Virus record (IMG/VR): IMGVR_UViG_3300035101_000063
DNA: 26,943 bases
DNA from: a virus
Direction: 5' to 3' (one strand)
The notes beneath the pieces are model-generated. The model did not search any database. It saw nothing but the letters and a program-made list of their open reading frames with translations, and was not told where the DNA came from. Shown in pieces: positions 4,067-23,444 of the stretch. How positions within the stretch are numbered: position 1 is the stretch's first letter; the number at the start of each line of letters is the position of its first letter. The translations under genes were made by a program, and so were the position numbers.

Positions 4067-4073
4067 AAAACCA

Positions 4074-6118: not shown

Positions 6119-6139
6119 TTTTTATAATCCTTTCAACTA

Positions 6140-6153
6140 CGAACTCGAGTTCG
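6140..6153. repeat. perfect palindrome CGAACTCGAGTTCG (copy 1 of 3)
   Basis: Exact 14-mer; intergenic, between stop of 6189..6749 and start of 5747..6118. Confidence 0.9.
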
Positions 6154-6188
6154 CCTACTTTCCCTATTTACACAATATGAATCCAAAT

Positions 6189-6749: not shown

Positions 6750-6753
6750 AATA

Positions 6754-7290
6754 TCACCATAAATTCCCTTTCCTTCCCCCTAAATAATATGGGTCAAACA
6801 AAACAGATGGTTCTTTTTTCTTCAAATATTTTTCATCCAATTCAGCATTTTTATACTCATCAATACCATTCTCAATATGTTCCCACACATAACCTATACT
6901 AGGTTCTTTAACACCCAATAAAACCTGACGATAATAAATATTACCTTTTCTATCACGAAAATCACTACATATAAATTGAAAACCATTCCATCGTATATGC
7001 CTTCTTAATGTACTTAAAGCATTTATTTCATATCCTTCCTTCAAAACATAAACACCTAATTTTTCAGGAAATGGACATGGTCTTCTATGCTTATCTATCA
7101 AAAAATCCCAATGAAATATATCACATGTTGGTCGTGTCATCGGCTGAATAGGATTAAATAATAAATATTCATATTCATCCTGTTTCACGTAAGATGATTC
7201 ATTATCCTTACTCACTAACTCCTTTTGAATACCTAAAGCAGAATATAATTTGTCTGTAAAATATTTTATATCACTAAACTCTTCACTCAT
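6754..7290 (-). CDS. hypothetical protein (178 aa)
   Basis: Minus ORF; no family recognised. Confidence 0.45.
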   Translation of the reverse strand: MSEEFSDIKYFTDKLYSALGIQKELVSKDNESSYVKQDEYEYLLFNPIQPMTRPTCDIFHWDFLIDKHRRPCPFPEKLGVYVLKEGYEINALSTLRRHIRWNGFQFICSDFRDRKGNIYYRQVLLGVKEPSIGYVWEHIENGIDEYKNAELDEKYLKKKEPSVLFDPYYLGGRKGNLW

Positions 7291-7374
7291 TATACTTTTC
7301 CTTTCTTTGAAATCTCATCAAATATCAAAACATAACATTTATCTTGCAGCCTTCTTTTTGTTCATTATTATTTA

Positions 7375-8145
7375 TCAACATGGCATCTCTCTTATCCTGG
7401 CCCACATTGGCCATTCATCAACAATATCACCTTTTCTACTTTTAGAACCATTTTTCTTTGCCCAAACAGTCCCCATCTGCTTGAAAAAAACCCTACAACC
7501 AAGAAGTTTAGCATATGACACAATCTTCTCAGCATTATTTTCGTTCATTTCCCTTGCTTTTTGACCAGATTCTCCACCAATAATCACCCATTCAATCCCA
7601 CGAAGATTAAAAAAATCATCCTCTACTGGAGTAACATAAGGACTAAAAATATCACCAATTAATGGTTCAAAAGATACAAATTTATGTTCAACATTCGTAC
7701 CTCTCAAAATATTAATTCTATTAACTGTTTGTCTCAATCCAACAGATACACCGTACCAAACATGGTCAAGAAATCCATTCCTTTCTTGAAAATATCTATT
7801 CATTATCTGAGCTCTTTTTGTCAAAACAATATACTTATGATGATTATATTTATTCATTGCATCATGCATATCATCAATAAAACTAAATGGTACTTCAGAA
7901 TGAAAAGGGTCTCCCATCGAACATATAAAAACCCATCTAGGTCTAGTCCATTCACCTAATTTTTTAAGCACATCTGGATGACAACGAACATCAAATCCAT
8001 CCTCATAATTCTTTTGACCCATTGCTTTCAATCGCATAGCCATTTTTTCAGCATAACAATTATCACATTCTGGACTAATCTTTGAACAACCCGTCACTGG
8101 ATTTAATGTTGCATCAGTCCAATGAATCGCACTCTTATCTCCCAT
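7375..8145 (-). CDS. phage Gp37/Gp68 family protein (DUF5131)
   Basis: N-terminus IHWTDATLNPVTGCSKISPECDNCYAEKMAMRL matches the hallmark WTDATWNP..GC...S.GC.NCYA of the Gp37/Gp68 family. Confidence 0.6.
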   Translation of the reverse strand: MGDKSAIHWTDATLNPVTGCSKISPECDNCYAEKMAMRLKAMGQKNYEDGFDVRCHPDVLKKLGEWTRPRWVFICSMGDPFHSEVPFSFIDDMHDAMNKYNHHKYIVLTKRAQIMNRYFQERNGFLDHVWYGVSVGLRQTVNRINILRGTNVEHKFVSFEPLIGDIFSPYVTPVEDDFFNLRGIEWVIIGGESGQKAREMNENNAEKIVSYAKLLGCRVFFKQMGTVWAKKNGSKSRKGDIVDEWPMWARIREMPC

Positions 8146-8210
8146 AAAACCTTATCCTTTAATCTTTTCAACTATCTATATTTTAATACTCAAAAATCAA
8201 CTTAACTCTA

Positions 8211-8591
8211 TCAACTCTTCCATATACCCATTTCTATTTTTGTCTTTTTGTACTCTCTTTTTCTGTACTCTCTTTTTATTTTACTGTTCTTCTTTACAAC
8301 TTCAACTCTTGTTCTTTCATCACAAATCATAACTTTAATATCTTTACCATATAATTTCTTCAAATCATTAGATACTTTTCCAATTACAGATTCAGACAAA
8401 CGATTTGCTGGTAATCCTTCAGTATCAATATGAACAACCAACATATCACCAGGATTAATACTAACCCTTGTTACTTCTTTTATTTTTATAAAATCATCAC
8501 TTTTAGGCATATGATATGCCATTTCTGCAAATTCTTCACCACCAATATCCATACCTATTTTTTTGAAATCTTCTTCTAATGTAGTTCTCAT
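8211..8591 (-). CDS. hypothetical protein with basic C-terminal tail
   Basis: Minus ORF; ATGA start/stop overlap with upstream gene; AGAAGG SD. Lys/Arg-rich C-terminus. Confidence 0.45.
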   Translation of the reverse strand: MRTTLEEDFKKIGMDIGGEEFAEMAYHMPKSDDFIKIKEVTRVSINPGDMLVVHIDTEGLPANRLSESVIGKVSNDLKKLYGKDIKVMICDERTRVEVVKKNSKIKREYRKREYKKTKIEMGIWKS

Positions 8592-8962
8592 TTTGTCAAC
8601 CTTCTAAATTCCTCAAAAACCCTTGCTGGAATCATTACCCAATCCCTATCGGTGGTACTATCAAATTCCCCTCCCTTTATTTCTATAGCCAATGCAGGTT
8701 CGCAATTATTATCTTCTGCTTCTCTGGAAATTTTCTTTAACCAGTCCCATTTAACAGAAATACTTGCTTTTTTAGTTTGTTTTGCCTCAATCAAGAATTC
8801 TTTATCTCTCACATAAACATCCCTGACATCTCCTTTTGAATGATAATTAGCACCAGACCCACCAACACGCTTACCACCAAATCTTTTAGCTAACCGATTC
8901 TCTTGTTCTGTTGGACTTCCACCACTACTACCAATATATCTCCTAGGTTCATATTTTCCCAT
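8588..8962 (-). CDS. hypothetical protein, candidate small PD-(D/E)XK (VRR-NUC-like) nuclease
   Basis: GDVRD...FLIEAKQTKK resembles the D...ExK core; size about 120 aa is typical of VRR-NUC. Weak call. Confidence 0.3.
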   Translation of the reverse strand: MGKYEPRRYIGSSGGSPTEQENRLAKRFGGKRVGGSGANYHSKGDVRDVYVRDKEFLIEAKQTKKASISVKWDWLKKISREAEDNNCEPALAIEIKGGEFDSTTDRDWVMIPARVFEEFRRLTK

Positions 8963-10202
8963 CTAATATCCTATCCAATAAAATCTTCCTAAGCTTTTCG
9001 AAAGTAGCTGGTTCTTCTATTCTAGCCATAGCATCCTTTTTTCTAGTATATTTTTCATTACCAACATACCATGTCTTATTTGAACCATCTCCAACTTCTC
9101 TATACATATTTAATTTAGAAGCCATACCAATAACATATTTTAATTCATCTATTTTTCCAGCATTATCCCCTGCAATCCACATATAATAACTACCCATTTG
9201 TTTTGCAGGTGCCGTCTTGTTCTTTTCGGTCTTATAACTAACTTTCACTCTAGTACCAATTTCAGACATCAAATCCTTACCAAAAATATCCTTATCTTGT
9301 TCCTCTTTAGTCCATTTTGATGTCCAAAAATTTACAATTGTACTAGCAAAAAACAATTGTCCTTTTCCTGATGTCATCACACGATTATCACCGAATGATG
9401 ACCCACCAATTTTTTCCCTAAATTGATTTATCCAAATATGTGTTGGTGCTCTACCTTTTGACTTCATAACAGAAGTAATACTAGATAACACTTTCCTAAT
9501 AAACTTATTCATCAGTCTCGCTTGCAATCCTTGTTGCCATTCAGCTAAACTATTCTCAATTTCTGCAGATGGTGTCATAGCAGCAATAGAATCAAGCACA
9601 AACAAATCAATTTCTCCAGTTCTTACTAAACTCTCATATATATCACATACCTCCTCTGTTGTTTCAGCTTGAACATACAATAATCTACGAATATCAACAC
9701 CCAATTTTGCAGCCCATACCTTATCAAATGTCCCTTCTGGGTCAAAAAATACAACACTAAATTCTTCATACGAATTTTCTTTATATCTTTCTAATCGTTT
9801 TTTAAAATCAGATTCTTTTTCATCATCATACTTAATAGGCTTAAAAATCCCACGACTAAAACAATCACACTTTCCTTCTGCACTCCAGTATGTATCACCT
9901 TCTGAATCAACAACTTCTGAAACACTCAAATCTTTTACTGGCCTATAACAATTTGCACATATATTTTGAGCAAGTCCTATTACCCGTAAAGCATTTGTTG
10001 TCTTTCCAGATGATTCATCTCCAGCAAAAATAGTTGTTCTACCAACAGCAATACCACCACCTAATGCCCTATCAAAAGATAAACTACCTGTTGACAATCT
10101 AGGTATATTCTTAACAGAACCAGCACTACCAATTGTTCCAGAACCATGTTCTTTGTTGATCAATCTCTTAAGCACTGAAAGGCCAGGACGCTTTGTGTCC
10201 AT
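8949..10202 (-). CDS. recA: RecA-family recombinase with about 68-aa Cys4 insertion
   Basis: IPRLSTGSLSFDRALGGGIAVGRTTIFAGDESSGKTT aligns with E. coli RecA [35 protein letters not shown]. Later FFDPEGTFDKVWAAKLGVDIRRLLYVQAETTEE...LDSIAAMTPSAEIE aligns with RecA [24 protein letters not shown]...VDSVAALTPKAEIE. Between them lies a CANCYRP...GKCDC insertion. Confidence 0.8.
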   Translation of the reverse strand: MDTKRPGLSVLKRLINKEHGSGTIGSAGSVKNIPRLSTGSLSFDRALGGGIAVGRTTIFAGDESSGKTTNALRVIGLAQNICANCYRPVKDLSVSEVVDSEGDTYWSAEGKCDCFSRGIFKPIKYDDEKESDFKKRLERYKENSYEEFSVVFFDPEGTFDKVWAAKLGVDIRRLLYVQAETTEEVCDIYESLVRTGEIDLFVLDSIAAMTPSAEIENSLAEWQQGLQARLMNKFIRKVLSSITSVMKSKGRAPTHIWINQFREKIGGSSFGDNRVMTSGKGQLFFASTIVNFWTSKWTKEEQDKDIFGKDLMSEIGTRVKVSYKTEKNKTAPAKQMGSYYMWIAGDNAGKIDELKYVIGMASKLNMYREVGDGSNKTWYVGNEKYTRKKDAMARIEEPATFEKLRKILLDRILDGKI

Positions 10203-10203
10203 T

Positions 10204-10794
10204 TCATATCCCTTTGTCGCTTTCTAATGATTTAATTCTAGAAAATTGGTCTGCAATATCAGAAGCCATATCATCAGATATAACCTCAAATATTTCTACA
10301 ATATTATCATTATCAGAAATTGGTATCTCTTCCATTGTATCTACCTGATGAGATTCATATTCTTTAGCTCCCTTTAACGTCAAACCATATGAAATAAATA
10401 TATTCCTATCCATACAGGCATTCAAAATACCAATTGTATTTGCTTCAAATTGTGGCTTATATTCTTTTTCTTCAAGTCCATATTCCTCCCTTTTAAGCAT
10501 TTCCAAAATAAAATCTTTAACAGCTCTTTTAACAATAGAATAATCATCACTATTATCAAATTTCACTTTAACAGAAAGCTTAATCCTACCAAACTCATAT
10601 CTTCTAAGCGCAATTGTTCTTCCTGCACTAAATCCATAAGAAAACAAATCAGTGCGATTAGAATGAATACCTATCTTACCGCTTCCGTTATGAGAACCTG
10701 AATATCCTTTTGGTTCACCTTTGTATCTTACTAATTTAGACTTACAAACATTACCTTCATTTTCAATTTTCATCTTTTCCTCCTCATTCAACAA
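10204..10794 (-). CDS. hypothetical protein (196 aa)
   Basis: Minus ORF; TGAAATG coupling to RecA gene. Confidence 0.45.
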   Translation of the reverse strand: MLNEEEKMKIENEGNVCKSKLVRYKGEPKGYSGSHNGSGKIGIHSNRTDLFSYGFSAGRTIALRRYEFGRIKLSVKVKFDNSDDYSIVKRAVKDFILEMLKREEYGLEEKEYKPQFEANTIGILNACMDRNIFISYGLTLKGAKEYESHQVDTMEEIPISDNDNIVEIFEVISDDMASDIADQFSRIKSLESDKGI

Positions 10795-10827
10795 AACAAT
10801 ATATTTACAACCTAAAAAAACAGTTTA

Positions 10828-11340
10828 TCAACAAATATTTACACCTAACTTAATCCATTCTTTAACTATTTTATTATAAATTTCTGTATCAAGGAATAGA
10901 ATAATACCTCTTGATTGCAATACCATTTTAACAATTAAAATCATACCAATACTATACAATCTTTTTCCTCTACCAGTTTTAAATGGTGTATCAGGTATAA
11001 CACCCGATTTAATCCAATTTTTTACTGTAGATACAGGACGACCAATATTTTCAGCTAAATCATTAATTGAAAGACCAACACACTTTTTGCCATTAACAAT
11101 AATATAAATAGGACCATTATTACGTTTTCTTGGTTTAGATTTTGGTATTTTTCCTTCAGCTCTTAATTTATCCATCTCAGCTTTTTTTTTGGCCCTATTT
11201 AATCTTGCTAATTCCTTTGCACGCTCTCTCACCTTGGAATCATTTTGATATCTTTCTTTCTTTCGTTCTGAAATTTTTTCTCTGTTTGTTTCATAATACA
11301 TACGTTGATATTCTTTTCGACTATCGGAACTACTACTCAT
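10828..11340 (-). CDS. HTH DNA-binding protein (MerR/excisionase-like helix-turn-helix near C-terminus)
   Basis: LSINDLAENIGRPVSTVKNWIKSGVIP is a typical HTH_17/MerR-type motif. Track ORF extends to 11454 and overlaps the helicase gene by 80 nt. An internal ATG at 11340 (MSSSSDSRKEY), preceded by a GGAAGGAA SD-like motif, is the more likely start. Confidence 0.45.
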   Translation of the reverse strand: MSSSSDSRKEYQRMYYETNREKISERKKERYQNDSKVRERAKELARLNRAKKKAEMDKLRAEGKIPKSKPRKRNNGPIYIIVNGKKCVGLSINDLAENIGRPVSTVKNWIKSGVIPDTPFKTGRGKRLYSIGMILIVKMVLQSRGIILFLDTEIYNKIVKEWIKLGVNIC

Positions 11341-11374
11341 AAAACCATTCCTTCCATCCCCAATGTTCCGAAAA

Positions 11375-12889
11375 TCAAGACACCTCTGTTCCAATTTTCC
11401 TATAGAACTTCTGTCTGCGCCTCCATTTCGGTAAAAGCTGGGGAATATTCTCATCTACGACATCAACTATAATAGGTTTAGGTTTTTCTTTACAATTACC
11501 AACTCTCCATGGACAATAATGTTCGCATTTTTCCTTGTCTTGATAACACCACCTTCTAGCGCGACCAACTATTTGTTCTATATCTCCCATAGGCATCGAA
11601 AGAACCAACACATCAAGCGCTTCAACATCAAATCCTTCCTCGATGCTTTGCTTAGTTGCAAAAATTACATTAGCACGTTCTGCTTTATCAAAATCAGCTT
11701 CTGTTCTTTTGACCATTTTAGGGTCACCTTTTTTATGCCTACTATTTGATTCTTCCCATACTTCTCCAGAAAACCATTCACCAGTACAAAAATCAATAGT
11801 AGGTTCAAATGGCAAATCAAGGTCAAATAAAGAATTCATCAACATGTCACTCATAAGTTTCAAATGATAAAGTCTTTCACTAACAACTATTATTTTACGA
11901 CCATTTTGAACAGCCAATACTAATTGATCAACAATATCTTTTGCTCTAAACTGATCCTTTCCAAGCTGAGTTAAAATTTGAGCACTATTCAAATTATCAA
12001 CTGATACATAATAATTACCCCTTCTTATCGGTTTCAAACATGAATAAGTCTTTAACACTCTCAAACCAGGCACTTGCGCCTTAGTTTTAGCAGAATATGT
12101 AACATCACTTATATGATTAAAAAATACGTCCTGTGCACCATCTTTTCGTCTAGGAGTTGCTGTTAAACCAACTCTCCATGCAGCATTAAATCTAGGTAAA
12201 ACAAATGACCATGAAGAAGCAGCTATTCTATGACATTCATCACTAATAACAATTCCGAATTCCGATTTATATATCCTTTCTGGATACTTATGACTATCTT
12301 TATCCCTCACTAAAGATTGAAGCATTGCAATAACAAAATCACAATCCTCAAATTCACATTTATTCTGACGAATAATTCCAACTTTAGCATCTGGCATAAA
12401 TTTTTTTATTCTATTCTTCCATTGTTTTAAAAAAAACTCTTTATGAACAATAATTAATGTCTTACGGCCAACACGTCTAGCAAACTCCAATGAACACGCT
12501 GTTTTTCCAAAAGCGCATCCTGCTTTCAACAAAAAACCATCCCACTTTTTACCCTCCATTCTAGCAAGAAATGTTCTTATTACAGCTTCCTGTTCAATGA
12601 AATTTCCAGTTGCCTGATATCTAGTAGTAAAGGCTGACATTTTACTACCATATGATATTTTTAATATTTCATCATGTTCCTTTGTAACATTTTTCCTATA
12701 CCATGCTCTAGGAACACCAATGAAATCCTCCTTTTCATCATACATATAAATAGGCTTTGGATCTGCCTTTGTAGCAATATCTGTCGTCTTCTTAGGATAT
12801 ATCGTTAATAATTCTTTTATATTTAAAATCTGTTGAGCAGACAAATCATCAATTGGCAACCAAACATTTCCACTTACAACAACTTTCAT
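11375..12889 (-). CDS. SF2 DExH-box DNA helicase (UvsW/type III res-like)
   Basis: Walker A AGCAFGKTACS, DECH box (VISDECHRIAA), arginine finger QIVGRARR; length 504 aa comparable to T4 UvsW. C-terminal Cys cluster. Confidence 0.8.
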   Translation of the reverse strand: MKVVVSGNVWLPIDDLSAQQILNIKELLTIYPKKTTDIATKADPKPIYMYDEKEDFIGVPRAWYRKNVTKEHDEILKISYGSKMSAFTTRYQATGNFIEQEAVIRTFLARMEGKKWDGFLLKAGCAFGKTACSLEFARRVGRKTLIIVHKEFFLKQWKNRIKKFMPDAKVGIIRQNKCEFEDCDFVIAMLQSLVRDKDSHKYPERIYKSEFGIVISDECHRIAASSWSFVLPRFNAAWRVGLTATPRRKDGAQDVFFNHISDVTYSAKTKAQVPGLRVLKTYSCLKPIRRGNYYVSVDNLNSAQILTQLGKDQFRAKDIVDQLVLAVQNGRKIIVVSERLYHLKLMSDMLMNSLFDLDLPFEPTIDFCTGEWFSGEVWEESNSRHKKGDPKMVKRTEADFDKAERANVIFATKQSIEEGFDVEALDVLVLSMPMGDIEQIVGRARRWCYQDKEKCEHYCPWRVGNCKEKPKPIIVDVVDENIPQLLPKWRRRQKFYRKIGTEVS

Positions 12890-12898
12890 AATACAACC

Positions 12899-13909
12899 TC
12901 AAAACGGTATATCATCATCATTGGGACCATTAGGTCCTACATATTGACCACTATCACCAAAACCAACTCCATACGTTTTAGGAGGCTCTCTCATGCCAGT
13001 TTGCATATTACTACGTACCATCCCTTGTCTTTGTCCATCATGAAACGATTTATTACCTCTATTATCTCCCCATCCTACAAGCTCATCAAGTTTTGCCTGA
13101 TAATCATCAACATCAATATCAAATACCCCTTTTTTCGAATCTGGATCTGTATATACTGGTATATCCAATTTTAAATATTCTGGATCTGCACCCCATCTAA
13201 CAAGATATTCCTCAAAGTGTTCAGGTGAAATTCTATCTACAAAAGACCAATCATTACCTACAATAGGTTCTTTTTTTCCAGTTCTAGTTGTATCCCATAT
13301 TGTACCAGTCAAATCCTCAATACCATGTTGTTGCCTTATTTCTGCTAACCTTCTCTGTAATGTCTTCATAACACCTGGATTATCAACAGATCCTCTTTTA
13401 GCACCTAGTAAAACTCTCTGAAAAGACCTCTCAAATCGGTCACCATTATCATTCTCCCAATATTCATGATGCAATCTTACCCTATTTCCTCTCCGTTCAA
13501 CCTGTCCCATGTCAATAACTGGTAAAAATCCAATAAAATATGCAAAATCCTTTCCACCCTTTTTAGAACAAACAGGACATGGTATCTTTGAGATACCATT
13601 TTTTTCTAAACAAATTGCTGTAAATGCTTCAAAAATATTATAAGCATTTTTAAATCTCCATAAACTATGTTCATAAATATTAAAAGGAGAACCATCCAAA
13701 AAAAGCACTCGTTTAGTAGCAGATGAACCAGGATTTACTAAATTTGGTTTTTTATCCGTACCCTTTGGTGTTGGAATTGAAAATCTAAATCTATAGAGTC
13801 TTTCATTTTCAGTAATCTTATTCCCACTATCACTACTGTCATAATCGCTATCATAACTATCATATTCATCTGGGTCTCCCCATCCTTTACTATAAGTTCC
13901 AATGCCCAT
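12899..13909 (-). CDS. putative ssDNA-binding protein (gp32-like Zn site) with SSB-type C-terminal tip DDDIPF
   Basis: H-x19-C-x10-C-x2-C arrangement (YEH...AIC...PCPVC) resembles the T4 gp32 Zn site. Long Gly/Gln-rich disordered linker ends ...GPNGPNDDDIPF, like bacterial SSB. Track start 13966 lacks SD and abuts the palindrome. The ATG at 13909 has GGAGAAAAAATG, so it is preferred. Confidence 0.4.
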   Translation of the reverse strand: MGIGTYSKGWGDPDEYDSYDSDYDSSDSGNKITENERLYRFRFSIPTPKGTDKKPNLVNPGSSATKRVLFLDGSPFNIYEHSLWRFKNAYNIFEAFTAICLEKNGISKIPCPVCSKKGGKDFAYFIGFLPVIDMGQVERRGNRVRLHHEYWENDNGDRFERSFQRVLLGAKRGSVDNPGVMKTLQRRLAEIRQQHGIEDLTGTIWDTTRTGKKEPIVGNDWSFVDRISPEHFEEYLVRWGADPEYLKLDIPVYTDPDSKKGVFDIDVDDYQAKLDELVGWGDNRGNKSFHDGQRQGMVRSNMQTGMREPPKTYGVGFGDSGQYVGPNGPNDDDIPF

Positions 13910-13969
13910 TTTTTCTCCATTTCGTGATCCTATATCACCATCTTTTTCGTGCTCTATTAGCACCATTTA

Positions 13970-13985
13970 GCGAACTCGAGTTCGC
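13970..13985. repeat. perfect palindrome GCGAACTCGAGTTCGC (copy 2 of 3)
   Basis: Exact; intergenic between DnaB-like gene stop and SSB-like gene start. Confidence 0.9.
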
Positions 13986-14139
13986 CAATATTTTTCACGT
14001 CATATTAACTACTATGCCAAATAGACCAATTATAAATTATATCTTTAATAAAGAAATCAACTATTAACAAAATCATCATCAAAACTCTCTACAACAACCT
14101 TCCAAAATTGTAAATAACACCACCTTTAAAGTTTGTCAA

Positions 14140-15486
14140 CTAAAATGGTATCCCCTCTTCCTCTTCATTATTTTCCTCTTCTTCAATTTCACCAAACTCC
14201 ATTCTATCAAAATCCCAATGAACCTTTATCTCTGGTTTCTTATATTGACCTCTACGAAGTTTTAAATTTTTAAATTTCATTACTTTATCATCTTTATCAT
14301 CTTTATTTTGTATTAATGCATAAACAGCATGAACATCCTGCCCAATCTCATCAGCTAATGCAATTGTTCCAAGCCTTGCCCCTCCCCCCTTCTTCTCCGA
14401 AAGCTCAGCAGTCCTATTCTGCTGTGCAAAACCTATCGCAGCATAGCCAAGCTCCTTGCAACTTCGCTTCATCCATCCAAGAGCCTCCACGGCTCTTTCA
14501 CGACGATCCCCTTTAATATGTAGGTCATAAATCGAATCAACAGCAACAAGCTCAGCATTACAAGCACGAATTGCAGCATCTATACCACGCGGACTCAAAT
14601 CATCATCAGAATCCATAATCCACAATCCATCCTTACCAGCCTCACCATTAATTGTATTTACAAATTTTTGCTCCATAACAGTTGGAAGTTGACCAGTAAT
14701 AACACTATGGTAACTAACATCAGAATGGATAGTAAAAAATCTCTCAGCTATCTCATCTTTACTCATTTCTGGTGAAACAACCAAGACACGTTTATCTTTC
14801 ATCCAGGCATGTCTACCACATATAACACAGACGAACGTTTTCCCAACTGAAGGTCGAGCAACAAACATAGTAACAGTTTTGGGCCATGCACCTGCCGTCA
14901 TATCATCTATTGTTTTCCACGGAAATGGAATACCCCTATATCCATCAGCAGCCTTTCTATAATTCTCAAGAACCTTTCCTCCAATATCCAATAAATTATG
15001 TGGCATTCTATGCCTAGAAAGGTCCTGTGCTGCATTCAACAGGGATTCAAGACTAGGAGATAAAGAATCTATACCTTCTGCTTTAAATCCATCATAAACA
15101 ACTTTCTGAGCATTATAAATTACACGACGTATAGCACTAGCTTCCCTAACTATATTTGCATAATGACCCACATTTGATGGTGCAGATACAAAATCTGTCA
15201 ATTGCGATAATGCAATTGCACCACCTATATTTTTTAATTGACCTTGCTCTCTTAATCTATTTCCTAATGTGACATGATCAACAGGTATCCCAGCCTCGAA
15301 CAAAGAATACATGCCATAAAAAATTATTCTATTGGAATTTATATAAAAATCTTCTTCATTTACATTAGCAAAAACTTCACCCCAACAATCATTATTCAAA
15401 AGAACAGATCCAAGAACAGCATTTTCAGCTTCTTCATTGTATGGTGGTATATTAGGTCCACCTTTAGAATCGCAAATATTGCTCAT
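14140..15486 (-). CDS. dnaB: DnaB-like replicative DNA helicase with acidic ...EEEEGIPF C-terminal tip
   Basis: N-terminal domain (PPYNEEAENAVLGSVLLNNDCWGEV...NRIIFYGM...IPVDHVTLGNRL...GGAIALSQL), Walker A ARPSVGKTFVCV, RecA-like C-terminal domain. Appended EEEENNEEEEGIPF tail. Confidence 0.85.
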   Translation of the reverse strand: MSNICDSKGGPNIPPYNEEAENAVLGSVLLNNDCWGEVFANVNEEDFYINSNRIIFYGMYSLFEAGIPVDHVTLGNRLREQGQLKNIGGAIALSQLTDFVSAPSNVGHYANIVREASAIRRVIYNAQKVVYDGFKAEGIDSLSPSLESLLNAAQDLSRHRMPHNLLDIGGKVLENYRKAADGYRGIPFPWKTIDDMTAGAWPKTVTMFVARPSVGKTFVCVICGRHAWMKDKRVLVVSPEMSKDEIAERFFTIHSDVSYHSVITGQLPTVMEQKFVNTINGEAGKDGLWIMDSDDDLSPRGIDAAIRACNAELVAVDSIYDLHIKGDRRERAVEALGWMKRSCKELGYAAIGFAQQNRTAELSEKKGGGARLGTIALADEIGQDVHAVYALIQNKDDKDDKVMKFKNLKLRRGQYKKPEIKVHWDFDRMEFGEIEEEENNEEEEGIPF

Positions 15487-15633
15487 AATTATATTAAATA
15501 TCTGTAGGTAATTCTCTTCTTTTAATAAGAAATTCTAATTTTTGTGTTTTGATACTCATTACTGCCTCCATAATATTTTATTTCAAACAAGACTTATTCT
15601 AAAAAGAATACTATATTCAACTCAAAATACTCA

Positions 15634-16329
15634 TCAATTACCACTTAATATAGACTTTAATCTATCTACAGAGCCATCTCTCTTATTATCACCAATAACA
15701 GGAACAGGAATTGTACATTCTCCTAAAGCATGAATAGTAGATTTTTTCAAATCAAGTTCTTCTTGCCAACGTTTTGGAGAAATATTTGAAGTAATTATAG
15801 TAACTTTTTTATTTGCATTTCTAGACCTAATTAATTCATCAAAAATCGTTGCACCAAAACCAGTATTATCCATTATACCCTTTCCAAAATCATCAATTAC
15901 TAATACATCTACATCTTTAGAACGTTCCCAATATGTCTCATCATCATCAAAATATTCTTTACTAGCAACCAATCGTTTTAAATCAGCAGCTTCTATAAAT
16001 AAAACAGTATTACCACGTCTGCGAAATTCTTTTGCTAAAACAACAGAAGCACATGATTTCCCAGTTCCATTATCACCATAAAATATAAAACCACCACCTT
16101 CTTTTCTCATTTTAGCCATATTTAAAATATATTTTTCAACCATACTTTTAAGACTATCTTGTCCATCTACATAAATATCTGTAAGATTATAAAAACTTGC
16201 TTTCCAATAACGTTTAGGTATATGCATTCGCTCCAAATCATTAGCACATAAATCGCGCCGAAAAGGAACATTAGAAAACATTTTACCAGCCAATTTTTGT
16301 TGACCCATCAAGTTCTGGATCATATTCAC
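15634..16329 (-). CDS. DnaC/IstB-like AAA+ helicase loader
   Basis: Walker A GDNGTGKSCASVVLAKEF, Walker B VLVIDDFG, size 231 aa, located immediately downstream of DnaB-like gene. Confidence 0.7.
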   Translation of the reverse strand: MNMIQNLMGQQKLAGKMFSNVPFRRDLCANDLERMHIPKRYWKASFYNLTDIYVDGQDSLKSMVEKYILNMAKMRKEGGGFIFYGDNGTGKSCASVVLAKEFRRRGNTVLFIEAADLKRLVASKEYFDDDETYWERSKDVDVLVIDDFGKGIMDNTGFGATIFDELIRSRNANKKVTIITSNISPKRWQEELDLKKSTIHALGECTIPVPVIGDNKRDGSVDRLKSILSGN

Positions 16330-16903
16330 CTACCATATGTTTTTTCTTTTTGGGCTTTTTTCTACCAGGAACATTACCCAATTTAGCATCAACAAATATC
16401 CTATCTCTACCAACCCATAAAAATCTAACATTGGGTGCACCAGAAAGTCTTCCGTTACTATTATCAATCATAGCTTGCCAATTATCACAAAACCACTCAA
16501 CAGTTTTCTCTACAATCTCTGGCCCATAATGTTTCAATAACTTGTTGGCACATGTTATTTCTTCTATGCCCCACCAAGTCTGTTTTTTCTCACTAACATC
16601 ATCACCTTTATCTACCACAAGCCAATCAGAATTATTTTTTCTTATTCCTTTCACAAACCAACGCTGAACACAAAACCAATTTATCACGTCCTTTTTAGTT
16701 TGTCTATTATCTCCAGCAGATTTGTCAACTGTTGATTGAGTATAACAATCTTTAAAAGAAGGTGTTTCAGGTTTTAACTCTTGCTTTATTTTATTTTTTT
16801 CTTTACGTTTTTCTCTAGCTTTTTCTTCAAGCCTTAAAGTATTTTCTTTGATATCTTCAATTTTTTTTGAAAACTTTTTTCTCCAATTATTTCCCACTAT
16901 CAT
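16283..16903 (-). CDS. hypothetical basic protein (206 aa), possible replication initiation accessory
   Basis: Minus ORF overlapping loader gene; Lys-rich N-terminal coiled-coil-like segment. Function unknown. Confidence 0.4.
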   Translation of the reverse strand: MIVGNNWRKKFSKKIEDIKENTLRLEEKAREKRKEKNKIKQELKPETPSFKDCYTQSTVDKSAGDNRQTKKDVINWFCVQRWFVKGIRKNNSDWLVVDKGDDVSEKKQTWWGIEEITCANKLLKHYGPEIVEKTVEWFCDNWQAMIDNSNGRLSGAPNVRFLWVGRDRIFVDAKLGNVPGRKKPKKKKHMVGEYDPELDGSTKIGW

Positions 16904-17153
16904 ATTCTCTACCTTCCAACAAATTCACAGAAGATGCCTGTAAATCCTTCAGTGTTCCATTTATTTCAACCAATAATTCAACCCAATCCTCCTTATAATT
17001 GATACCACACAAACGTTTGCAGTCATTAGAAAAAGCAACCGCTTCAAAATCATTCATTTCAACAATACGGTCTCTCCAGGATGTTACTTTTCTAATCCAT
17101 CCGATACCATATTTTGTTTCGACTTTATCGCCGATGAAGTATTTTCGAGCCAT
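16887..17153 (-). CDS. hypothetical protein (88 aa)
   Basis: Minus ORF with AAGGGA SD at proper spacing; start lies 70 nt inside the upstream gene. Confidence 0.4.
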   Translation of the reverse strand: MARKYFIGDKVETKYGIGWIRKVTSWRDRIVEMNDFEAVAFSNDCKRLCGINYKEDWVELLVEINGTLKDLQASSVNLLEGREYDSGK

Positions 17154-17596
17154 TCTAATCCCTTAATTTTCCTAGCATCATCTACTAGAATCTCTCTATG
17201 GTCATTCATCCAAATTGGAGCACGAAAAATAACATCATTCCAAGACCAACCATCAAGCACTAACAACTCAGCAGCAATCACATTATATAATATATTATTT
17301 TGTTCAGATATTAATTTAGCACTATTTAATATATCTCTTAATCTATCATAAAATAATACAAAATGGTCTTCATTAGGTCTATTTAATATAATACTATTTC
17401 CATCATCTAATAAGATTTCAATAGAATTCACACCAAATGCTTCTGATAATTCAAAAACAACTTCACCCATTCCAAATAAAATTAAATCTTCTAAATCAAA
17501 TTTATCATTAAATTCATCATTAAATTCATCATTAAATTCATCATTAAATTCATCATTAACATGTTTTATAGGAAATAATAAATTATTTTCTTTCAT
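17084..17596 (-). CDS. hypothetical protein with N-terminal (NDEF)x4-5 tandem repeat
   Basis: Minus ORF; repeat encoded by 12-nt tandem array. Confidence 0.45.
   Translation of the reverse strand: MKENNLLFPIKHVNDEFNDEFNDEFNDEFNDKFDLEDLILFGMGEVVFELSEAFGVNSIEILLDDGNSIILNRPNEDHFVLFYDRLRDILNSAKLISEQNNILYNVIAAELLVLDGWSWNDVIFRAPIWMNDHREILVDDARKIKGLEWLENTSSAIKSKQNMVSDGLEK
17498..17557. repeat. 12-nt tandem repeat AAATTCATCATT x5 (first copy imperfect) encoding DEFN repeats
   Basis: Direct reading. Confidence 0.85.
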
Positions 17597-17654
17597 CTCA
17601 ACTATTCATCCAGCATCATACTGATATCAACATATATAAAAAAAATAAAATTTG

Positions 17655-17981
17655 TCAACCCATACGTTTTAGATAATTTCCTTTTTCATATTCTCTACGC
17701 TTATCTTCATCCGTAACATAATCCATAATAATTTGTATTTTATTTTTACCTTGAATTGCAGACAAAAATGAACGAATAGAATTAACTAAATGAGCATTCC
17801 TACCAATAACCTGACCAACATCTTTAGGATGTGTTCTTAAAGCCACAAGAGCACTATAACCATTACTCTCTATATCAACCTGAACATCCTCTGGATGATT
17901 TACAAAATGACGAACAAGCATTACTACTTCACGAATAGCATCTATTACCAATGGATCAATTTTACCTAAATTTTTACCCAT
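17655..17981 (-). CDS. KH-domain RNA-binding protein, KhpA/YlqC-like (KH_4)
   Basis: VNHPEDVQVDIESNGYSALVALRTHPKDVGQVIGRNAHLVNSIRSFL matches the KhpA pattern (hPEDV.V...l.l.v.p.DmGkVIGk.Gr...aiR.ll). Track start at 18014 is TTG and overlaps the upstream gene. ATG at 17981 (MGKNLGK) preferred. C-terminal extension of about 30 aa. Confidence 0.55.
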   Translation of the reverse strand: MGKNLGKIDPLVIDAIREVVMLVRHFVNHPEDVQVDIESNGYSALVALRTHPKDVGQVIGRNAHLVNSIRSFLSAIQGKNKIQIIMDYVTDEDKRREYEKGNYLKRMG

Positions 17982-17982
17982 A

Positions 17983-18297
17983 TCAAATACCCAAATCAGC
18001 CTTTCTGGTCGCAATTTCCGTATTACGACGTTCTACCAATATCTTAGCATCCTCCTCATTTATTCCTTCACGATGTTTCCAATTTGTCCTCATTGCCCGC
18101 TCTCTAGAAGCATGAAGTTCTTTAAATTGACGACTATATCTTCTCACCATACTTCTAATCTCATCCTGTGTTTTTATCGGCAAATATCCATTGTTTTGTA
18201 AAAAACATCTTGCTTCATTAATAAATTTACGTTTATCTATAGGTAACTTAATACTCACAAAATCATTCAATATTTCACATATACTCATCTGTTCCAT
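17983..18297 (-). CDS. hypothetical protein (104 aa)
   Basis: Minus ORF with GAGGTG SD and predicted promoter upstream. Confidence 0.45.
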   Translation of the reverse strand: MEQMSICEILNDFVSIKLPIDKRKFINEARCFLQNNGYLPIKTQDEIRSMVRRYSRQFKELHASRERAMRTNWKHREGINEEDAKILVERRNTEIATRKADLGI

Positions 18298-18325
18298 GCT
18301 TGCATCACCTCAGCATCTATATTAT

Positions 18326-18355
18326 TTTATAATAGATATTATTAATATATGTCAA
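18326..18355 (-). promoter_or_regulatory. sigma70-like promoter TTGACA-18-TATAAA on minus strand
   Basis: rc of 18350-18355 is TTGACA; rc of 18326-18331 is TATAAA. Sits in a 129-nt AT-rich intergenic region about 30 nt upstream of the 17983..18297 start. Confidence 0.4.
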
Positions 18356-18426
18356 AATATTTTTTTCTAACATATCATAACAAACTCGATTTCACCATAA
18401 ACATCTATCTCAAAAATATAAAATCA

Positions 18427-19014
18427 TCAAATTGGTGTTGTAGAAAGTATAAAAGAAATCAATATATTATCAGAATCTAACGGAATTTTAAAAACTTCAT
18501 TAGCAACTTTCACATTAACAATATATTCACCACAATCATCAACATCAACAAAACCAACCAATCCAATCATATCCAAAAATGGTTCATTTTCACTATCAAA
18601 TCTAAATTTTGTTCCGGTTAAAAATTTTAAACTTGAAATATTAGAATACCAATCAACTATCTCTTCTAAATTATCACCATATCCAGCAACAACCATATTA
18701 ACCATATGTCTCATAACAGATATTATCATATCATTGAAAAATTCAATACCACAAAACTCAACAAAATCATTATCTATTTTTACTATACCTGCACTTCTCA
18801 TCAAAGAGGGATAGTTAACTTTCCCAATAGGTCGTAACGATTCTATATTTCCATTCACATCATATAAAACAAAACTTCCATCAACAACCTTAGTGCGAAC
18901 CTGCCATAATAATTCAATTCCATCATCAACAATTTCAGCTTTTACCCACATCCCGTCTGGTGTTTTTGCATAATATTCCAAGACTCTTTCTTTGTTTCTC
19001 ATTAATTTCATCAT
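18427..19014 (-). CDS. hypothetical protein (195 aa)
   Basis: Minus ORF; no family recognised. Confidence 0.45.
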   Translation of the reverse strand: MMKLMRNKERVLEYYAKTPDGMWVKAEIVDDGIELLWQVRTKVVDGSFVLYDVNGNIESLRPIGKVNYPSLMRSAGIVKIDNDFVEFCGIEFFNDMIISVMRHMVNMVVAGYGDNLEEIVDWYSNISSLKFLTGTKFRFDSENEPFLDMIGLVGFVDVDDCGEYIVNVKVANEVFKIPLDSDNILISFILSTTPI

Positions 19015-19294
19015 ATTCTTTTTCGCTCAAAACATCTTCACGCCATACATATCTAACTATATCATCTAATTTTATAGCAACAGCTACTTTTCTTAAATGT
19101 TCATGCTTAAAATAATCATCCTCCATCCTATCAAGATAAAACTGTATTTTTTTTGTATATTTTATTTTTTTTGCCTTGGTATATTTCCTATAAATTTTAA
19201 TATTTAACCCTGGAGGATTATTAAATAACATATCCCTATTCAGCCACACATCAAAAGATGCCTTTATAACACGTGGGTCTCTTTTACTTGCCAT
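18935..19294 (-). CDS. hypothetical basic protein (119 aa)
   Basis: Minus ORF; overlaps downstream gene by about 80 nt. Confidence 0.4.
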   Translation of the reverse strand: MASKRDPRVIKASFDVWLNRDMLFNNPPGLNIKIYRKYTKAKKIKYTKKIQFYLDRMEDDYFKHEHLRKVAVAIKLDDIVRYVWREDVLSEKEYDEINEKQRKSLGILCKNTRRDVGKS

Positions 19295-19295
19295 A

Positions 19296-20267
19296 TTATT
19301 TTGGAATAATTATCTTTGGTTTTTCAGAAGCTACTTTCATAGCTTTAATATTGTCATCTGTTTTATCAGTAACTAATTTTGTAACTTCTTTTACACGTCT
19401 TGCTCTCTCATCAGCCTTATTACCAACAGCTTCTTTCATTGCTTCAGCAAGCGCTATATCTTCTTCAATTCCAACAGGATCACCATCATCACAATCCATT
19501 GGAATATCTGCATTGAAGATATCATCCTCTATTGTATCAGTTTCATTAAATAATTCTGGTACTTTGTTACCTTGCTGAATTTCAACAACCCTTTCACCTT
19601 TAGCTACTACATTTGCAAGCCTAGCCTTAGCTTTATCCGTCCATCCAACAGTTGGTGATTCCATAGGAATATTACCAATCAATTCTATTCCATAATTAGA
19701 TGTATCAGGAATATCTTTATCACCATATATACTTCTACATTCCTCTTCTGATTCAAAAACCTCTATTATTCCATCTTCAATATGACGAACAACAAATAAT
19801 TCAAGGTCTTCTTTAGTTATAACATTATCTCTACCACCAGCCATTTCAGACATAGCTTCTTCTATATCATTAGGAATAATCCCTATCGGAAAAGTAGCTC
19901 CTTGAAGCATGGCCCACAAATGCGTTTGACCAAAATTCTGTTCTCTCCAATCAGCCGGAAACAACTCAATAGCTTCAGATTGTTCACCACAAAGCTCTCT
20001 TTTAATCCTCTGCTTTAAACCATAAAAATAATCATCAGACCCTTTTAACCCTTTTGCCCATTGAATCATCAAATGAGCAATCTTCTGAGGAGCACCGTCT
20101 GGTGTAGTAAAAGCAGGAGATTCAACTTCCTTAATAAAAATTGTAACATGTCCATTTTGAAAGGCAGCCACAACATTAGATTCCTGTGCATCTGGTGGAA
20201 CTTGGAAAGGAATCAATGGTTTCCAAGGTTTATATTTTAAATTTCTATCAGATCCTTTTTTTTTCAT
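19296..20267 (-). CDS. hypothetical acidic protein (323 aa)
   Basis: Long minus ORF with coding-like composition, acidic C-terminal third. No family recognised. Confidence 0.5.
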   Translation of the reverse strand: MKKKGSDRNLKYKPWKPLIPFQVPPDAQESNVVAAFQNGHVTIFIKEVESPAFTTPDGAPQKIAHLMIQWAKGLKGSDDYFYGLKQRIKRELCGEQSEAIELFPADWREQNFGQTHLWAMLQGATFPIGIIPNDIEEAMSEMAGGRDNVITKEDLELFVVRHIEDGIIEVFESEEECRSIYGDKDIPDTSNYGIELIGNIPMESPTVGWTDKAKARLANVVAKGERVVEIQQGNKVPELFNETDTIEDDIFNADIPMDCDDGDPVGIEEDIALAEAMKEAVGNKADERARRVKEVTKLVTDKTDDNIKAMKVASEKPKIIIPK

Positions 20268-20572
20268 CTAAACCTCGCTTTCACCTCAATGGTAATATTT
20301 TTTCTTGGTATACCTCTCTTCAATACATGAACAATTGAAAATCCTTCATTCATGTAACACTCTGAAACTTCATCCGCACAATCAGACTGAGTTTCAAATC
20401 CCATGGTAAAATATTTACCATAATTATCTTTCATGATTAAAGCCCAAGGCTTTTTAAGATTTCGTAATGCTTCAATTTTAGAATTACATTCTTCAACATC
20501 CTCAACAATTTTTACAATATCTTCTATTGGAATCTTAACAATAAAAGTATCTTTTTCAACATTATCATTCAT
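20264..20572 (-). CDS. hypothetical protein (102 aa)
   Basis: Minus ORF; ATGA overlap with downstream gene. Confidence 0.45.
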   Translation of the reverse strand: MNDNVEKDTFIVKIPIEDIVKIVEDVEECNSKIEALRNLKKPWALIMKDNYGKYFTMGFETQSDCADEVSECYMNEGFSIVHVLKRGIPRKNITIEVKARFR

Positions 20573-20747
20573 CTTCTTGAAACCTTTCTTCTAATTCTGT
20601 TAAACGAGCAATCATATGCCTTTCATTATCATTACAAATAGCAATACGTTTAAACATAATACCCAACTTTCTTTTCATATAAAAATATGAACTTATGCTT
20701 CCAATGAAAAAAAATACTACTGCAACAAAAAACATACTCAATAACAT
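20565..20747 (-). CDS. small single-pass membrane protein (60 aa)
   Basis: N-terminal hydrophobic helix MLLSMFFVAVVFFFIGSISSYFYM followed by a charged cytoplasmic tail. Holin-like topology but no adjacent lysin. Confidence 0.4.
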   Translation of the reverse strand: MLLSMFFVAVVFFFIGSISSYFYMKRKLGIMFKRIAICNDNERHMIARLTELEERFQEDE

Positions 20748-20748
20748 A

Positions 20749-21102
20749 TCAAAAATCCACTATACCTAAATCATCAACTGTCAAGGATTCCTTGTCAATT
20801 GCTAAATCAACTTCTTCCTTCGACATTCCTTTTTTTATCAATATATTTTTAGCTGCTCTATATTTTTTATCCAAAGAAAAAACTAATTCTTGAATGGCAT
20901 CATGTCTAAATCGGTACCACTCTGCACGAAATTCATTTTCGATTGAAACACGAGCATCATCATATTTAAAACCAAAAAAATTAATCACATCTTTTGGCAT
21001 TTCTTTAAAACGCTCACGAACATATTCTTTTTGGTCCATACACAATGGATTCAATTTTATTTCATTAGTCATCTTCAAATTCATCAACAAACATTCTAGC
21101 AA
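20749..21102 (-). CDS. hypothetical protein (117 aa)
   Basis: Minus ORF; no family recognised. Confidence 0.4.
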   Translation of the reverse strand: MLECLLMNLKMTNEIKLNPLCMDQKEYVRERFKEMPKDVINFFGFKYDDARVSIENEFRAEWYRFRHDAIQELVFSLDKKYRAAKNILIKKGMSKEEVDLAIDKESLTVDDLGIVDF

Positions 21103-21355
21103 TAACAGCCTGATTGTTTAAAGCAGAACTCTCAACTGACATAGCTGTTTGATAAGCTATTCCAATCAAATCCTGAAACATTTTTGCCGATTGCATTCTT
21201 AAAACAATTTTTTCATATAAAGACTGTCTAGAATCACTTATTTCATTATCAATTGTACGTCTTTCCAAATAAGCATTGCTAGACAAATGCTCAAAAGCAT
21301 TAATTGCAGCCTGTGATTTCCAAACAATTTTTACATTTTCAACTTTTTCATCCAT
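21065..21355 (-). CDS. hypothetical protein (about 96 aa)
   Basis: Track start at 21361 is TTG; first ATG at 21355 has AAGG 6 nt upstream. Palindrome copy 3 lies 14 nt upstream of that ATG. Confidence 0.4.
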   Translation of the reverse strand: MDEKVENVKIVWKSQAAINAFEHLSSNAYLERRTIDNEISDSRQSLYEKIVLRMQSAKMFQDLIGIAYQTAMSVESSALNNQAVIARMFVDEFEDD

Positions 21356-21369
21356 TTTCAACCTTGCAA

Positions 21370-21383
21370 CGAACTCGAGTTCG
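21370..21383. repeat. perfect palindrome CGAACTCGAGTTCG (copy 3 of 3)
   Basis: Exact; intergenic between lysin-like gene stop (21387) and next start (21355). Confidence 0.9.
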
Positions 21384-21386
21384 CAA

Positions 21387-22037
21387 TTAATCCACTAAGA
21401 CAGGAGGTGCCCAAGGAGACCTATAAAATCTATTTCTAAATTTCATACCATTTGATGGAACAATCCTAACCCAATATCTCCCAGGTTTATCCATTTTGCC
21501 ACCGAAATGATCAGCACCTAACACAGGATTCGGTTTTCCACCTTTTGACCAGTCTTCTAAAGCAGATAAAATATCATTCCACATGTCTCTATGATTACTC
21601 CATTTAAGTCTATGTGGCCATCCAACCGGTTTCTTGCCTTTTAAATTCAAATTCAAAATCCATCTTCTGGTATGCGTGCTACGATACTTTATAGCAGCAG
21701 AATATTTCCTTACAACGTCAACAAATTTCATCTTTGAATTTTTAGCACCTTTCCATCTTGTAGCATATACCCAAGCAATTCCTATACATTCATCAACAGC
21801 ATCAAAACCAGCCTCACCAGCACAACTTCTAGCAACCCATAATTTTACACTATCATCCCATTCTGTCTTAGGAATCGGCCTATTCTTTGAAACAGAAACA
21901 TTAGAAATACCATCTATATTACTATCAGCATTAACAACAAAACTACAAACAAACATTGAAAAACAAAACAAAAACTTTATAAATTTCAAAAACATATATA
22001 TCCTCCTATTCAAAACTGCAACCAAAGTATAAAACAC
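21387..22037 (-). CDS. secreted SleB-like cell-wall hydrolase (Hydrolase_2 family); candidate lysin
   Basis: Hydrophobic signal-like N-terminus (MFLKFIKFLFCFSMFVCSFVVNA). LWVARSCAGEAGFDAVDECIGIAWVYATRW and KFVDVVRKYSAAI match the Hydrolase_2 motifs (L.AR.i..EA..E...gq.AVa.Vv.NR ... v..Vv.q..QFsa). True start may be the internal Met at about 21995. Confidence 0.5.
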   Translation of the reverse strand: MFYTLVAVLNRRIYMFLKFIKFLFCFSMFVCSFVVNADSNIDGISNVSVSKNRPIPKTEWDDSVKLWVARSCAGEAGFDAVDECIGIAWVYATRWKGAKNSKMKFVDVVRKYSAAIKYRSTHTRRWILNLNLKGKKPVGWPHRLKWSNHRDMWNDILSALEDWSKGGKPNPVLGADHFGGKMDKPGRYWVRIVPSNGMKFRNRFYRSPWAPPVLVD

Positions 22038-22058
22038 ATCAATTCTATCGTCAAATAA

Positions 22059-23420: not shown

Positions 23421-23444
23421 GTATCAATATTACCTTTATAAAAC

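Follow-up and report, generated by a model that had tools for sequence, protein, structure and literature searches.

Bacteriophage T7 offers the closest described parallel to the locus reported here. Its hexameric replicative helicase (gp4) and its single-stranded DNA (ssDNA)-binding protein (SSB; gp2.5) both carry a disordered acidic tail with a C-terminal phenylalanine, as do the two proteins described below, and both T7 tails dock on the same basic patch of the polymerase (PMC12339929). Bacterial SSBs end in the SSB-Ct peptide, whose receptor pockets read the carboxylate of the terminal Phe, the Pro at -2, a hydrophobic residue at -3, upstream acidic residues and a flexible linker (PMC3632105, PMC3561973). 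Phage SPP1 supplies its own origin binder, loader, helicase and SSB (G38P, G39P, G40P, G36P) and takes PolC, DnaE, the clamp loader and DnaG from its host; it depends on an SSB that has its C-tail, in which Pro-Phe is the critical pair (PMC3561973). In HK620, the last six residues of the SSB (NDYPPF, SSB-Ct-like) are needed to stimulate the phage RecA-like protein Sak4 (PMC5928155). Twin acidic Phe-ended tails (in T7) and SSB-Ct hubs (in bacteria and in phage SSB homologues) are therefore already known. Our literature searches brought up no DnaB-family helicase and no gp32-fold protein with a described SSB-Ct tip, and we know of no report of an SSB-type tail on the SPP1 helicase G40P. Here we describe such tips on two proteins encoded in the virus record IMGVR_UViG_3300035101_000063 (26,943 nt; this whole stretch is called the window below): a DnaB-family replicative helicase of 448 amino acids (aa; 14140..15486, minus strand) and an SSB candidate of 336 aa (12899..13909, minus strand). 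Our favoured reading, to which we give a probability of about 0.5, is that both tails are a shared SSB-Ct-type docking peptide, most likely for host replisome proteins.

Both acidic IPF ends, which a sequence-only reading of the window had pointed out, were read at these genes. The helicase open reading frame (ORF) closes with ...HWDFDRMEFGEIEEEENNEEEEGIPF* followed by the stop, so that its tip is E-E-E-E-G-I-P-F, in which -4 is Gly and -5 to -8 are acidic. The ORF of the SSB candidate closes with ...YVGPNGPNDDDIPF* (DDDIPF codons at 12902..12919, stop at 12899..12901), and D-D-D-I-P-F is the exact pan-bacterial SSB consensus. Both proteins show the features of an SSB-Ct motif: the chain closes with Phe and its free carboxylate, position -2 is Pro, position -3 is hydrophobic, and acidic residues lie upstream. 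IPF ends are confined to these two among the 45 minus-strand ORFs that are 60 aa or longer; at the window's own amino-acid frequencies the probability of an IPF end is 1.1e-4 per ORF, 0.005 such ends are expected, and two or more have a probability of 1.2e-5. The likeness to the bacterial peptide is thus twofold: the hexapeptide of the SSB candidate is identical and sits behind a Gly-rich linker predicted to be disordered, and the helicase tail keeps the critical Pro-Phe-COOH together with upstream acidic residues (PMC3632105, PMC3561973). The carriers differ, as they are not OB-fold (oligonucleotide/oligosaccharide-binding fold) SSB tetramers and one of them is a helicase, unlike the cellular DnaBs (1/36, see below). 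The locus also differs from T7 in several respects: the tip is hydrophobic-Pro-Phe, of the bacterial SSB type, where T7 has ..DxDF; a DnaB-type helicase and a separate DnaC-like loader stand in place of the primase-helicase fusion gp4; the SSB candidate has a predicted gp32-like fold rather than that of gp2.5; and no polymerase gene lies nearby. By analogy, the arrangement may be regarded as a bacterial-SSB dialect of the twin tails of T7 gp4 and gp2.5.

The helicase is a member of the DnaB family. It matches PF00772 (the DnaB N-terminal domain, 2e-28), PF03796 (DnaB_C, 1.7e-19) and phrog_19 (8e-61), its Walker A residues G215 and K216 are invariant, and it has the separate DnaB N-terminal domain and no primase domain. 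The C-terminal appendage EEEENNEEEEGIPF (residues 435-448; 14143..14184, minus strand) begins right after the last conserved block, hWDFdxMxFxEI. In the AlphaFold2 (AF2) model (pLDDT, the predicted local confidence, 88) the secondary structure stops at residue 433 and pLDDT is 47 for residues 441-448, and the tail is thus predicted to be disordered. A homologue search of 5.8 billion proteins placed the helicase in a well-separated clade of ~80 clusters at 40-91% identity, with cellular DnaBs, mostly Patescibacteria-type, below it at <35%; in the cultured-phage collection it has no relative above 29% identity. Across the clade (n = 83) 77 helicases end in F, 69 in PF and 68 in [ILVMT]PF, the last 20 residues carry a mean net acidic charge of +7.0, and position -5 is D or E in 65/83. 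In the cellular DnaB outgroup (n = 36) the corresponding numbers are 10, 1 and 1, and the mean net acidic charge is +0.5. The length and the sequence of the tail vary across the clade and only its end, with the consensus [DE]-[DE]-x-[IV]-P-F, is kept; the closest relative (91% identical) has another linker, a tail ..EEDEGNNYNDDIGF and the tip ...DDIGF. The proposal that bacterial DnaB proteins lack this tail was thereby borne out: as judged from the alignment, in which the tail lies past the last conserved block, it is an appendage that the nearest cellular DnaBs do not carry. Some Patescibacteria-type DnaBs (P0124, P0126, P0127, P0138, P0151) end in ..EEPPIY, ..EEIPEF, ..EEPPIF or ..APPEF; these are short Pro-aromatic ends, unlike the acidic IPF tail.

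The second carrier is encoded by an ORF whose longest form is 12899..13966 (minus strand, 355 aa; residue numbers below refer to it). Its start at 13909 (M20 of the ORF), as given by the sequence-only reading, is almost certain because the homologues begin MG[IL]G there and a GGAG lies 6 nt upstream. AF2 gave pLDDT >90 for residues 50-303 and <50 for residues 304-355; for this reason the Gly/Gln/Asn-rich linker (residues 304-349, which with the DDDIPF tip occupies 12902..13057, minus strand) is predicted to be disordered. Each of the two tails is thus displayed on a linker predicted to lack structure. D352, I353, P354 and F355 are at least 90% conserved in the family, and 34 of 36 homologues end in IPF. 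In the alignments of both families the tips are under purifying selection while the linkers vary freely. The residues of a putative zinc site, H100, C119, C130 and C133 (codons within 13568..13669, minus strand), are invariant in 37 sequences (36 of them homologues), and this His/Cys3 set is at least 90% conserved among 70 divergent family members, two of which carry inteins. The protein had been described from sequence as a Zn-site protein with a Gly/Gln linker; the invariant residues and the predicted disorder of the linker agree with this, and we infer zinc binding itself.

The same protein had been called a gp32-like SSB candidate; the predicted fold suggests this, and family membership by sequence was not borne out. 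In the structure comparison gp32 proteins, and not gp2.5, were the best fold matches, and the neighbouring genes encode replication proteins (loader and helicase on one side, a superfamily 2 (SF2) helicase and a RecA-like protein on the other). By sequence, there was no match in Pfam or NCBIfam, nor in PDB with phmmer and hmmsearch, and the sole PHROG is phrog_17226, listed with unknown function. PF00436 (OB-fold SSB) and the Pfam gp32 profile matched neither the window protein nor any of the 70 family members, while the same profile library does detect classical SSBs at other loci. Profile-profile comparison (hhalign) with T4 gp32 (the gp32 sequence used is identical to PDB 8gme_A) was not significant (probability 2.7% and 1.8%), so that the suggested profile check against gp32 and SSB families turned out negative; the single aligned segment of this non-significant match pairs C119, C130 and C133 with the gp32 zinc ligands C77, C87 and C90. 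From the fold matches and the lack of gp32/SSB sequence homology we conclude that the candidate has a predicted gp32-like fold and is not a member of the gp32 family by sequence; it presumably binds ssDNA. Further differences from T4 and RB69 gp32 are found at the termini. The N-terminus, MGIGTYSKGWGDPDEYDSYDSDYDSSDSG.., is acidic and Gly-rich and is not a basic cooperativity domain of the gp32 type, and nine true gp32 proteins (T4 and eight cultured phages) close with amphipathic acidic tails of an unrelated kind, for example ..DDLLNDL, ..LSYFAKLAEED and ..DDFEAFLKQN, and none of the nine with IPF. According to the model, therefore, the SSB candidate joins a gp32-like fold to a bacterial-style disordered linker and a bacterial SSB tip.

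The family of the SSB candidate is large. A profile search of 1.84 billion representatives (E<=1e-3) yielded 390 clusters at 50% identity; among 145 new representatives, 90 end in [ILVMT]PF and 126 in an aromatic residue. When the locus and the SSB candidate were compared with the cultured-phage collection, at both the DNA and the protein level, no relatives came up by sequence. By structure, relatives were found in Pseudomonas phage SM1 (gp042) and in the Bacillus phages BCD7 and SP-15, all of them annotated as 'uncharacterized'; in SM1 the genes run DnaB, PolA, primase, gp042, then RecA, resolvase and exonuclease. SM1 (L100, NC_041877: 32155-40132) has Arg-rich basic tips on PolA (..SRIRRSR), gp042 (..EALRRR) and gp043 (..PRLRRR), with similar ends in P0277, P0286, P0295 and P0301, and these may represent another code of shared tails. 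In 417 kb of DNA from the crown of the helicase tree, the clade that contains the window, we found no classical SSB.

The pair of tips recurs in syntenic loci with GC contents from 33% to 52%. In two related genomes both tips have changed together: in L138 the helicase ends in ..SDDVKY (9650-10921) and the SSB-like protein in ..DEEVKY (13864-14598), and in L139 the ends are ..DPDVKY (9575-10915) and ..DDVIKY (13806-14501). The KY tip is absent from the other 83 helicase tails and from the 181 SSB-family tails listed. This joint change to [VI]KY points to a receptor shared by the two proteins. It would also be expected if the receptor were encoded by the phage and evolved with the tails, as in a coupling of the T7 type, in which both tails would bind a basic patch on a DNA polymerase, or on a different replisome protein, that the phage encodes in another part of its 130-200 kb genome. 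Such a contact would tether the leading-strand polymerase to the helicase and help to displace the SSB, and the likeness of the tip to that of bacteria would be due to convergence or ancestry. In T7 itself gp2.5 ends in ..EADEDGDF and gp4 in ..WSNDTDF, and the front basic patch of gp5 is bound by the gp4 tail peptide DTDF as well as by the tail of gp2.5 (PMC12339929). Moreover, the ancestral state in the lineage described here is an acidic tail with a terminal aromatic residue in the presence of a phage primase, the genomes are big enough for a polymerase gene, and in established structures gp4/DnaB-type helicases turn their C-terminal face towards the fork, the place of the leading-strand polymerase. 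Nevertheless, no polymerase gene was found in any locus fetched, and the crown SSB tip is exactly the bacterial DDDIPF across GC contents of 33-52%, which would be needless for a private interface and which is not the case in T7 or T4. We consider this explanation unlikely on balance, although it is the strongest of the alternatives to docking on host proteins.

The same tip also occurs on proteins of other kinds. A 102-aa Cys/His-rich small protein unrelated to the two carriers and with no Pfam match (L010:5286-5594, L011:114-449) ends in ..VVVEDDGIPF, and an unrelated 166-aa protein (L013:568-1068), again with no Pfam match, ends in ..FSDDDIPW. At 74 distant phage DnaB loci, a gut-phage DnaB of another lineage ends in ..SSNNDIPF and others in ..DFDEDEPF or ..DKETPF; acidic-[ILV]PF ends are carried there by classical SSBs, by several proteins of 83-122 aa that belong to no Pfam family (for example ..DDIPF and ..DDLPF) and by a GIY-YIG nuclease (..DEIQKLPF). 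Judged by its distribution among these sequences, the tip is modular. An explanation confined to each protein leaves this distribution, as well as the joint switch to VKY, without a cause. It would hold that the tails are DNA mimics that fold onto the basic DNA-binding surface of their own protein and that the two tips resemble each other incidentally. In the SSB they would in this way tune its cooperativity or its binding to ssDNA, and in the helicase its loading or its ATPase activity. Both tails are strongly acidic, in E. coli SSB and in T7 gp2.5 the acidic C-tail competes with ssDNA (reviewed in PMC9917605), and in Twinkle, a helicase of the gp4 family, the C-terminal tail down-regulates the ATPase (bioRxiv 10.1101/2024.11.14.623559). 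However, charge alone does not account for a near-invariant hydrophobic-Pro-Phe end beside an acidic part that varies freely, and AF2 gave no confident docking of either tail on its own protein. As the sole function of the tails, internal regulation is improbable; as an additional role, it is compatible with recruitment.

The two genes belong to a conserved module. Its order is a 206-aa protein of unknown family (16283..16903, minus strand), a DnaC/IstB-like helicase loader directly upstream of the helicase (15634..16329, minus strand; IstB_IS21 2e-9, phrog_50, the DnaC-like loader, 2e-31, and synteny), the helicase and the SSB candidate, and then an XPB-like SF2 helicase, a MerR-like protein, an unknown protein and a RecA-like protein. 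This order spans loci of GC 33% to 67%, and loader, helicase and SSB candidate are always adjacent in the relatives' loci that we compared. Their invariable neighbourhood would fit a contact within the phage set, in which the helicase tail docks on the SSB candidate or on the DnaC-like loader and allows loading onto SSB-coated ssDNA, and the SSB tail binds the same loader, like T4 gp32 with gp59. T4 gp32 contacts the gp59 loader through its C-terminal domain, loaders attach to DnaB at its C-terminal face, and the solved structures include a gp32-Dda complex and a complex of a gp32 C-terminal peptide. On the other hand, nothing points to an SSB-Ct pocket on the loader or on the SSB, and the match of the tip to the bacterial consensus would go unexplained, which leaves this contact about as improbable as internal regulation.

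The module resembles the SPP1 set: in both, the phage has a loader, a DnaB-type helicase and an SSB with an SSB-Ct tail, and primase and polymerase are not nearby. The 206-aa protein, for which Pfam, PHROGs and NCBIfam gave no family match, stands where SPP1 has its origin-binding protein, and it could by this position be an initiator. Differences are that the SPP1 SSB is a classical homologue and that the phages described here are far larger and may encode more functions elsewhere. We found no DNA polymerase in the ~47 kb that surround the genes, nor in the +-10 kb covered in some 25 relatives. To its left and right, the extended sequence of the window phage encodes a sigma-70-like factor, a CCA/polyA polymerase, NYN, a peptidase and methylases; the downstream extension on L010/L011 has small ORFs only, and the upstream extension on L009 has NAD-salvage genes, a kinase and a phosphatase.

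As the sequence-only reading had stated, no primase gene is visible in the window, and a primase hidden Markov model (HMM) detected none there, in its extensions or in any crown-clade locus. The same HMM found a primase in the loci of 24 metagenomic relatives and in phage SM1. In sister lineages, a DnaG-type primase of ~350 aa, with the DnaG zinc ribbon, DNAG_N and Toprim, lies between helicase and SSB candidate; it is too short for a C-terminal helicase-binding domain. A collection-wide scan placed the primase on sister-lineage contigs and on none of five crown-clade contigs of 125-169 kb. From this distribution it appears that the crown clade has lost the lineage's DnaG-type primase. Genomes that have the primase make up a grade in the helicase tree, and their acidic/aromatic tips vary (..TAF, ..VVF, ..FIY, ..VKY, or none). 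Helicases with [ILVMT]P[FY] tips make up 14/18 in the crown and 3/23 in this grade (Fisher p 7e-5, uncorrected for phylogeny), and in most crown genomes the SSB candidate ends in IPF.

Taken with the SPP1 comparison, these observations lead to the favoured reading in the following form. Each tail would be a disordered acidic stretch that ends in hydrophobic-Pro-Phe with a free carboxylate, that is, a bacterial SSB-Ct, displayed on the SSB candidate with its predicted gp32-like fold and putative zinc site and, six per ring, on the DnaB-type helicase. With the same peptide on both, the two fork proteins could engage the same SSB-Ct pockets and pass partners between them. The likeliest partners would be host proteins that read the tip, for example DnaG primase, subunits of the clamp loader or of the polymerase, and PriA-type proteins. 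The phage would then supply an initiator-like protein, loader, helicase and SSB and borrow priming and elongation enzymes from the host, as SPP1 does. We infer every protein-protein contact of the tails, and we favour host partners for three reasons: the SSB tip stays at the pan-bacterial consensus although GC contents differ widely, the module resembles the self-supplied set of SPP1 that works with host enzymes, and the crown clade is without the lineage's own primase gene. A contact with host primase, proposed in the sequence-only reading by way of tail mimicry on the helicase, is mechanistically possible because the helicase-binding domain at the C-terminus of E. coli DnaG carries a pocket for the SSB-Ct apart from its DnaB site (PMC3632105). 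The missing sister-lineage primase is circumstantial support for this proposal.

Several points weigh against the favoured reading. The tips are discordant in several genomes: a helicase ending in VPF is found with an SSB ending in ..RGGPGxxW in L008, L106 and L113 and with one ending in ..DDDVDY in L013, so that a single shared pocket is not obligatory. In the window itself, the helicase has Gly at -4 where the SSB has Asp. The immediate sisters L013 and L116 keep both the primase and the PF tip of the helicase, which means that the tip predates the loss of the primase, and the association with primase rests essentially on one evolutionary event. Relatives' genomes measure 125-197 kb, of which ~20-47 kb were seen per genome, and the remainder may hold the gene of a phage polymerase or of a primase of a type other than DnaG. 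One crown-clade contig, Ga0316578_10000008 (44,960 bp), shares 97% identity over the helicase. Primase is, furthermore, not the partner that the geometry suggests: the tail leaves the ring on its C-terminal face, which in DnaB/gp4-type helicases is the side of the fork, the loader and the leading-strand polymerase, while DnaG binds the N-terminal collar. Phage SSB tails can also serve phage partners, as the HK620 SSB does with Sak4 (PMC5928155). Finally, because the two T7 tails both bind the gp5 basic patch, the T7 precedent points to coupling with a polymerase, and we put the favoured reading at about 0.5. Two stricter versions were rejected on these data: one-to-one matching of helicase and SSB tips in each genome is ruled out by the discordant genomes, and an origin of the helicase tip as a replacement for the primase is ruled out by L013 and L116. 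The ..D[FWY]RGGPG-x(2-4)-W end is a recurrent alternative in the SSB family, paired with VPF-ended helicases (L008:11399-12358, L106:1971-2918, L113:1106-2173; also P0170, P0222).

A bolder extension of the favoured reading is tentative, and we think it rather less probable than docking on host proteins as such. In it, the crown helicase ring would be an SSB mimic with six SSB-Ct tips that, together with the SSB, wires the fork into the host SSB interactome and so replaces the lost phage primase. In lineages that keep the primase the tips would drift and co-switch (VKY/VKY) with a private partner, and the same plug would have been added independently to unrelated DnaBs, small proteins and a nuclease.

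Two other proteins of the module could be phage-encoded clients of the tails. Directly downstream of the SSB candidate lies the gene of the XPB/Rad25-like SF2 helicase (11375..12889, minus strand; ResIII 5e-24, XPB-type PDB chains, synteny), a possible client of both tails. The RecA/UvsX-like recombinase (8949..10202, minus strand; RecA 8e-44, phrog_97), a conserved member of the module, is a possible client of the SSB-candidate tail. Its gene lies three genes downstream of that of the SSB candidate, which recalls HK620; there, however, only the SSB, a classical distant SSB homologue, is involved and no helicase tail. The RecA-like protein has a Cys-rich insertion of ~60 aa (..CANCYRP..GKCDC..) that cuts the RecA domain match in two. 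Inteins or intein-sized inserts occur in the XPB-like helicase, the DnaB-like helicase and the SSB-like protein of different relatives (for example L001:12409-15261 and L012:8114-10723; L115, L121, L128; P0234, P0243).

Further conserved ends were seen upstream. The 206-aa protein and its relatives share a ..GW end (DGSTKIGW, DDAVGHGW, SPDAGW, SPEIGW, DPALGW; relatives L001:8756-9322, L012:6874-7452, L116:9-545, L138:8036-8914, L122:8441-8998), which may be a second tail code within the module. Relatives of the 104-aa protein at 17983..18297 (minus strand) in L001 and L008-L013 end in D[VL]GF (KNDVGF, NDLGF, QDVGF, MDVGF, TDLGF), and the window copy ends in ADLGI. The gap between the helicase and SSB-candidate genes (13967..14139) is AT-rich with TATAAT-like boxes, a TTGACA immediately after the helicase stop and the hairpin GCGAACTCGAGTTCGC at 13970-13985. 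Over the whole window every credible gene is on the minus strand, GC is 30-37% and the GC skew (1..26943) is strongly negative, from -0.29 to -0.55.

With respect to the host, a scan of species-representative genomes returned phage-sized contigs of metagenome-assembled genomes only. A 91%-identical relative (L101, CAYUTF010000026.1) lies on a 34-kb contig binned as 'uncultured archaeon', and another relative (L102, CAYRYW010000002.1) on a 150-kb contig binned in Dehalococcoidales. The two are probably mis-binned because their gene content is of the bacterial type (DnaB, DnaC, RecA, sigma-70-like), and an archaeon and Dehalococcoidales as hosts were set aside as binning artefacts.

If the favoured reading is true, a foreign helicase would be coupled to the host replisome through SSB-Ct pockets by a simple and evolvable device, and the phage would be spared co-evolving the usual DnaB-primase or DnaB-clamp-loader interfaces. 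The twin-tail principle of T7 would then reach DnaB-type systems, and the set of users of the SSB-Ct code would be wider. SSB-Ct pockets are under study as antibacterial targets, and natural multivalent mimics of the SSB-Ct would be useful as probes. In addition, a probable function, that of an ssDNA-binding protein, can be assigned to a large family that has been listed as uncharacterised.

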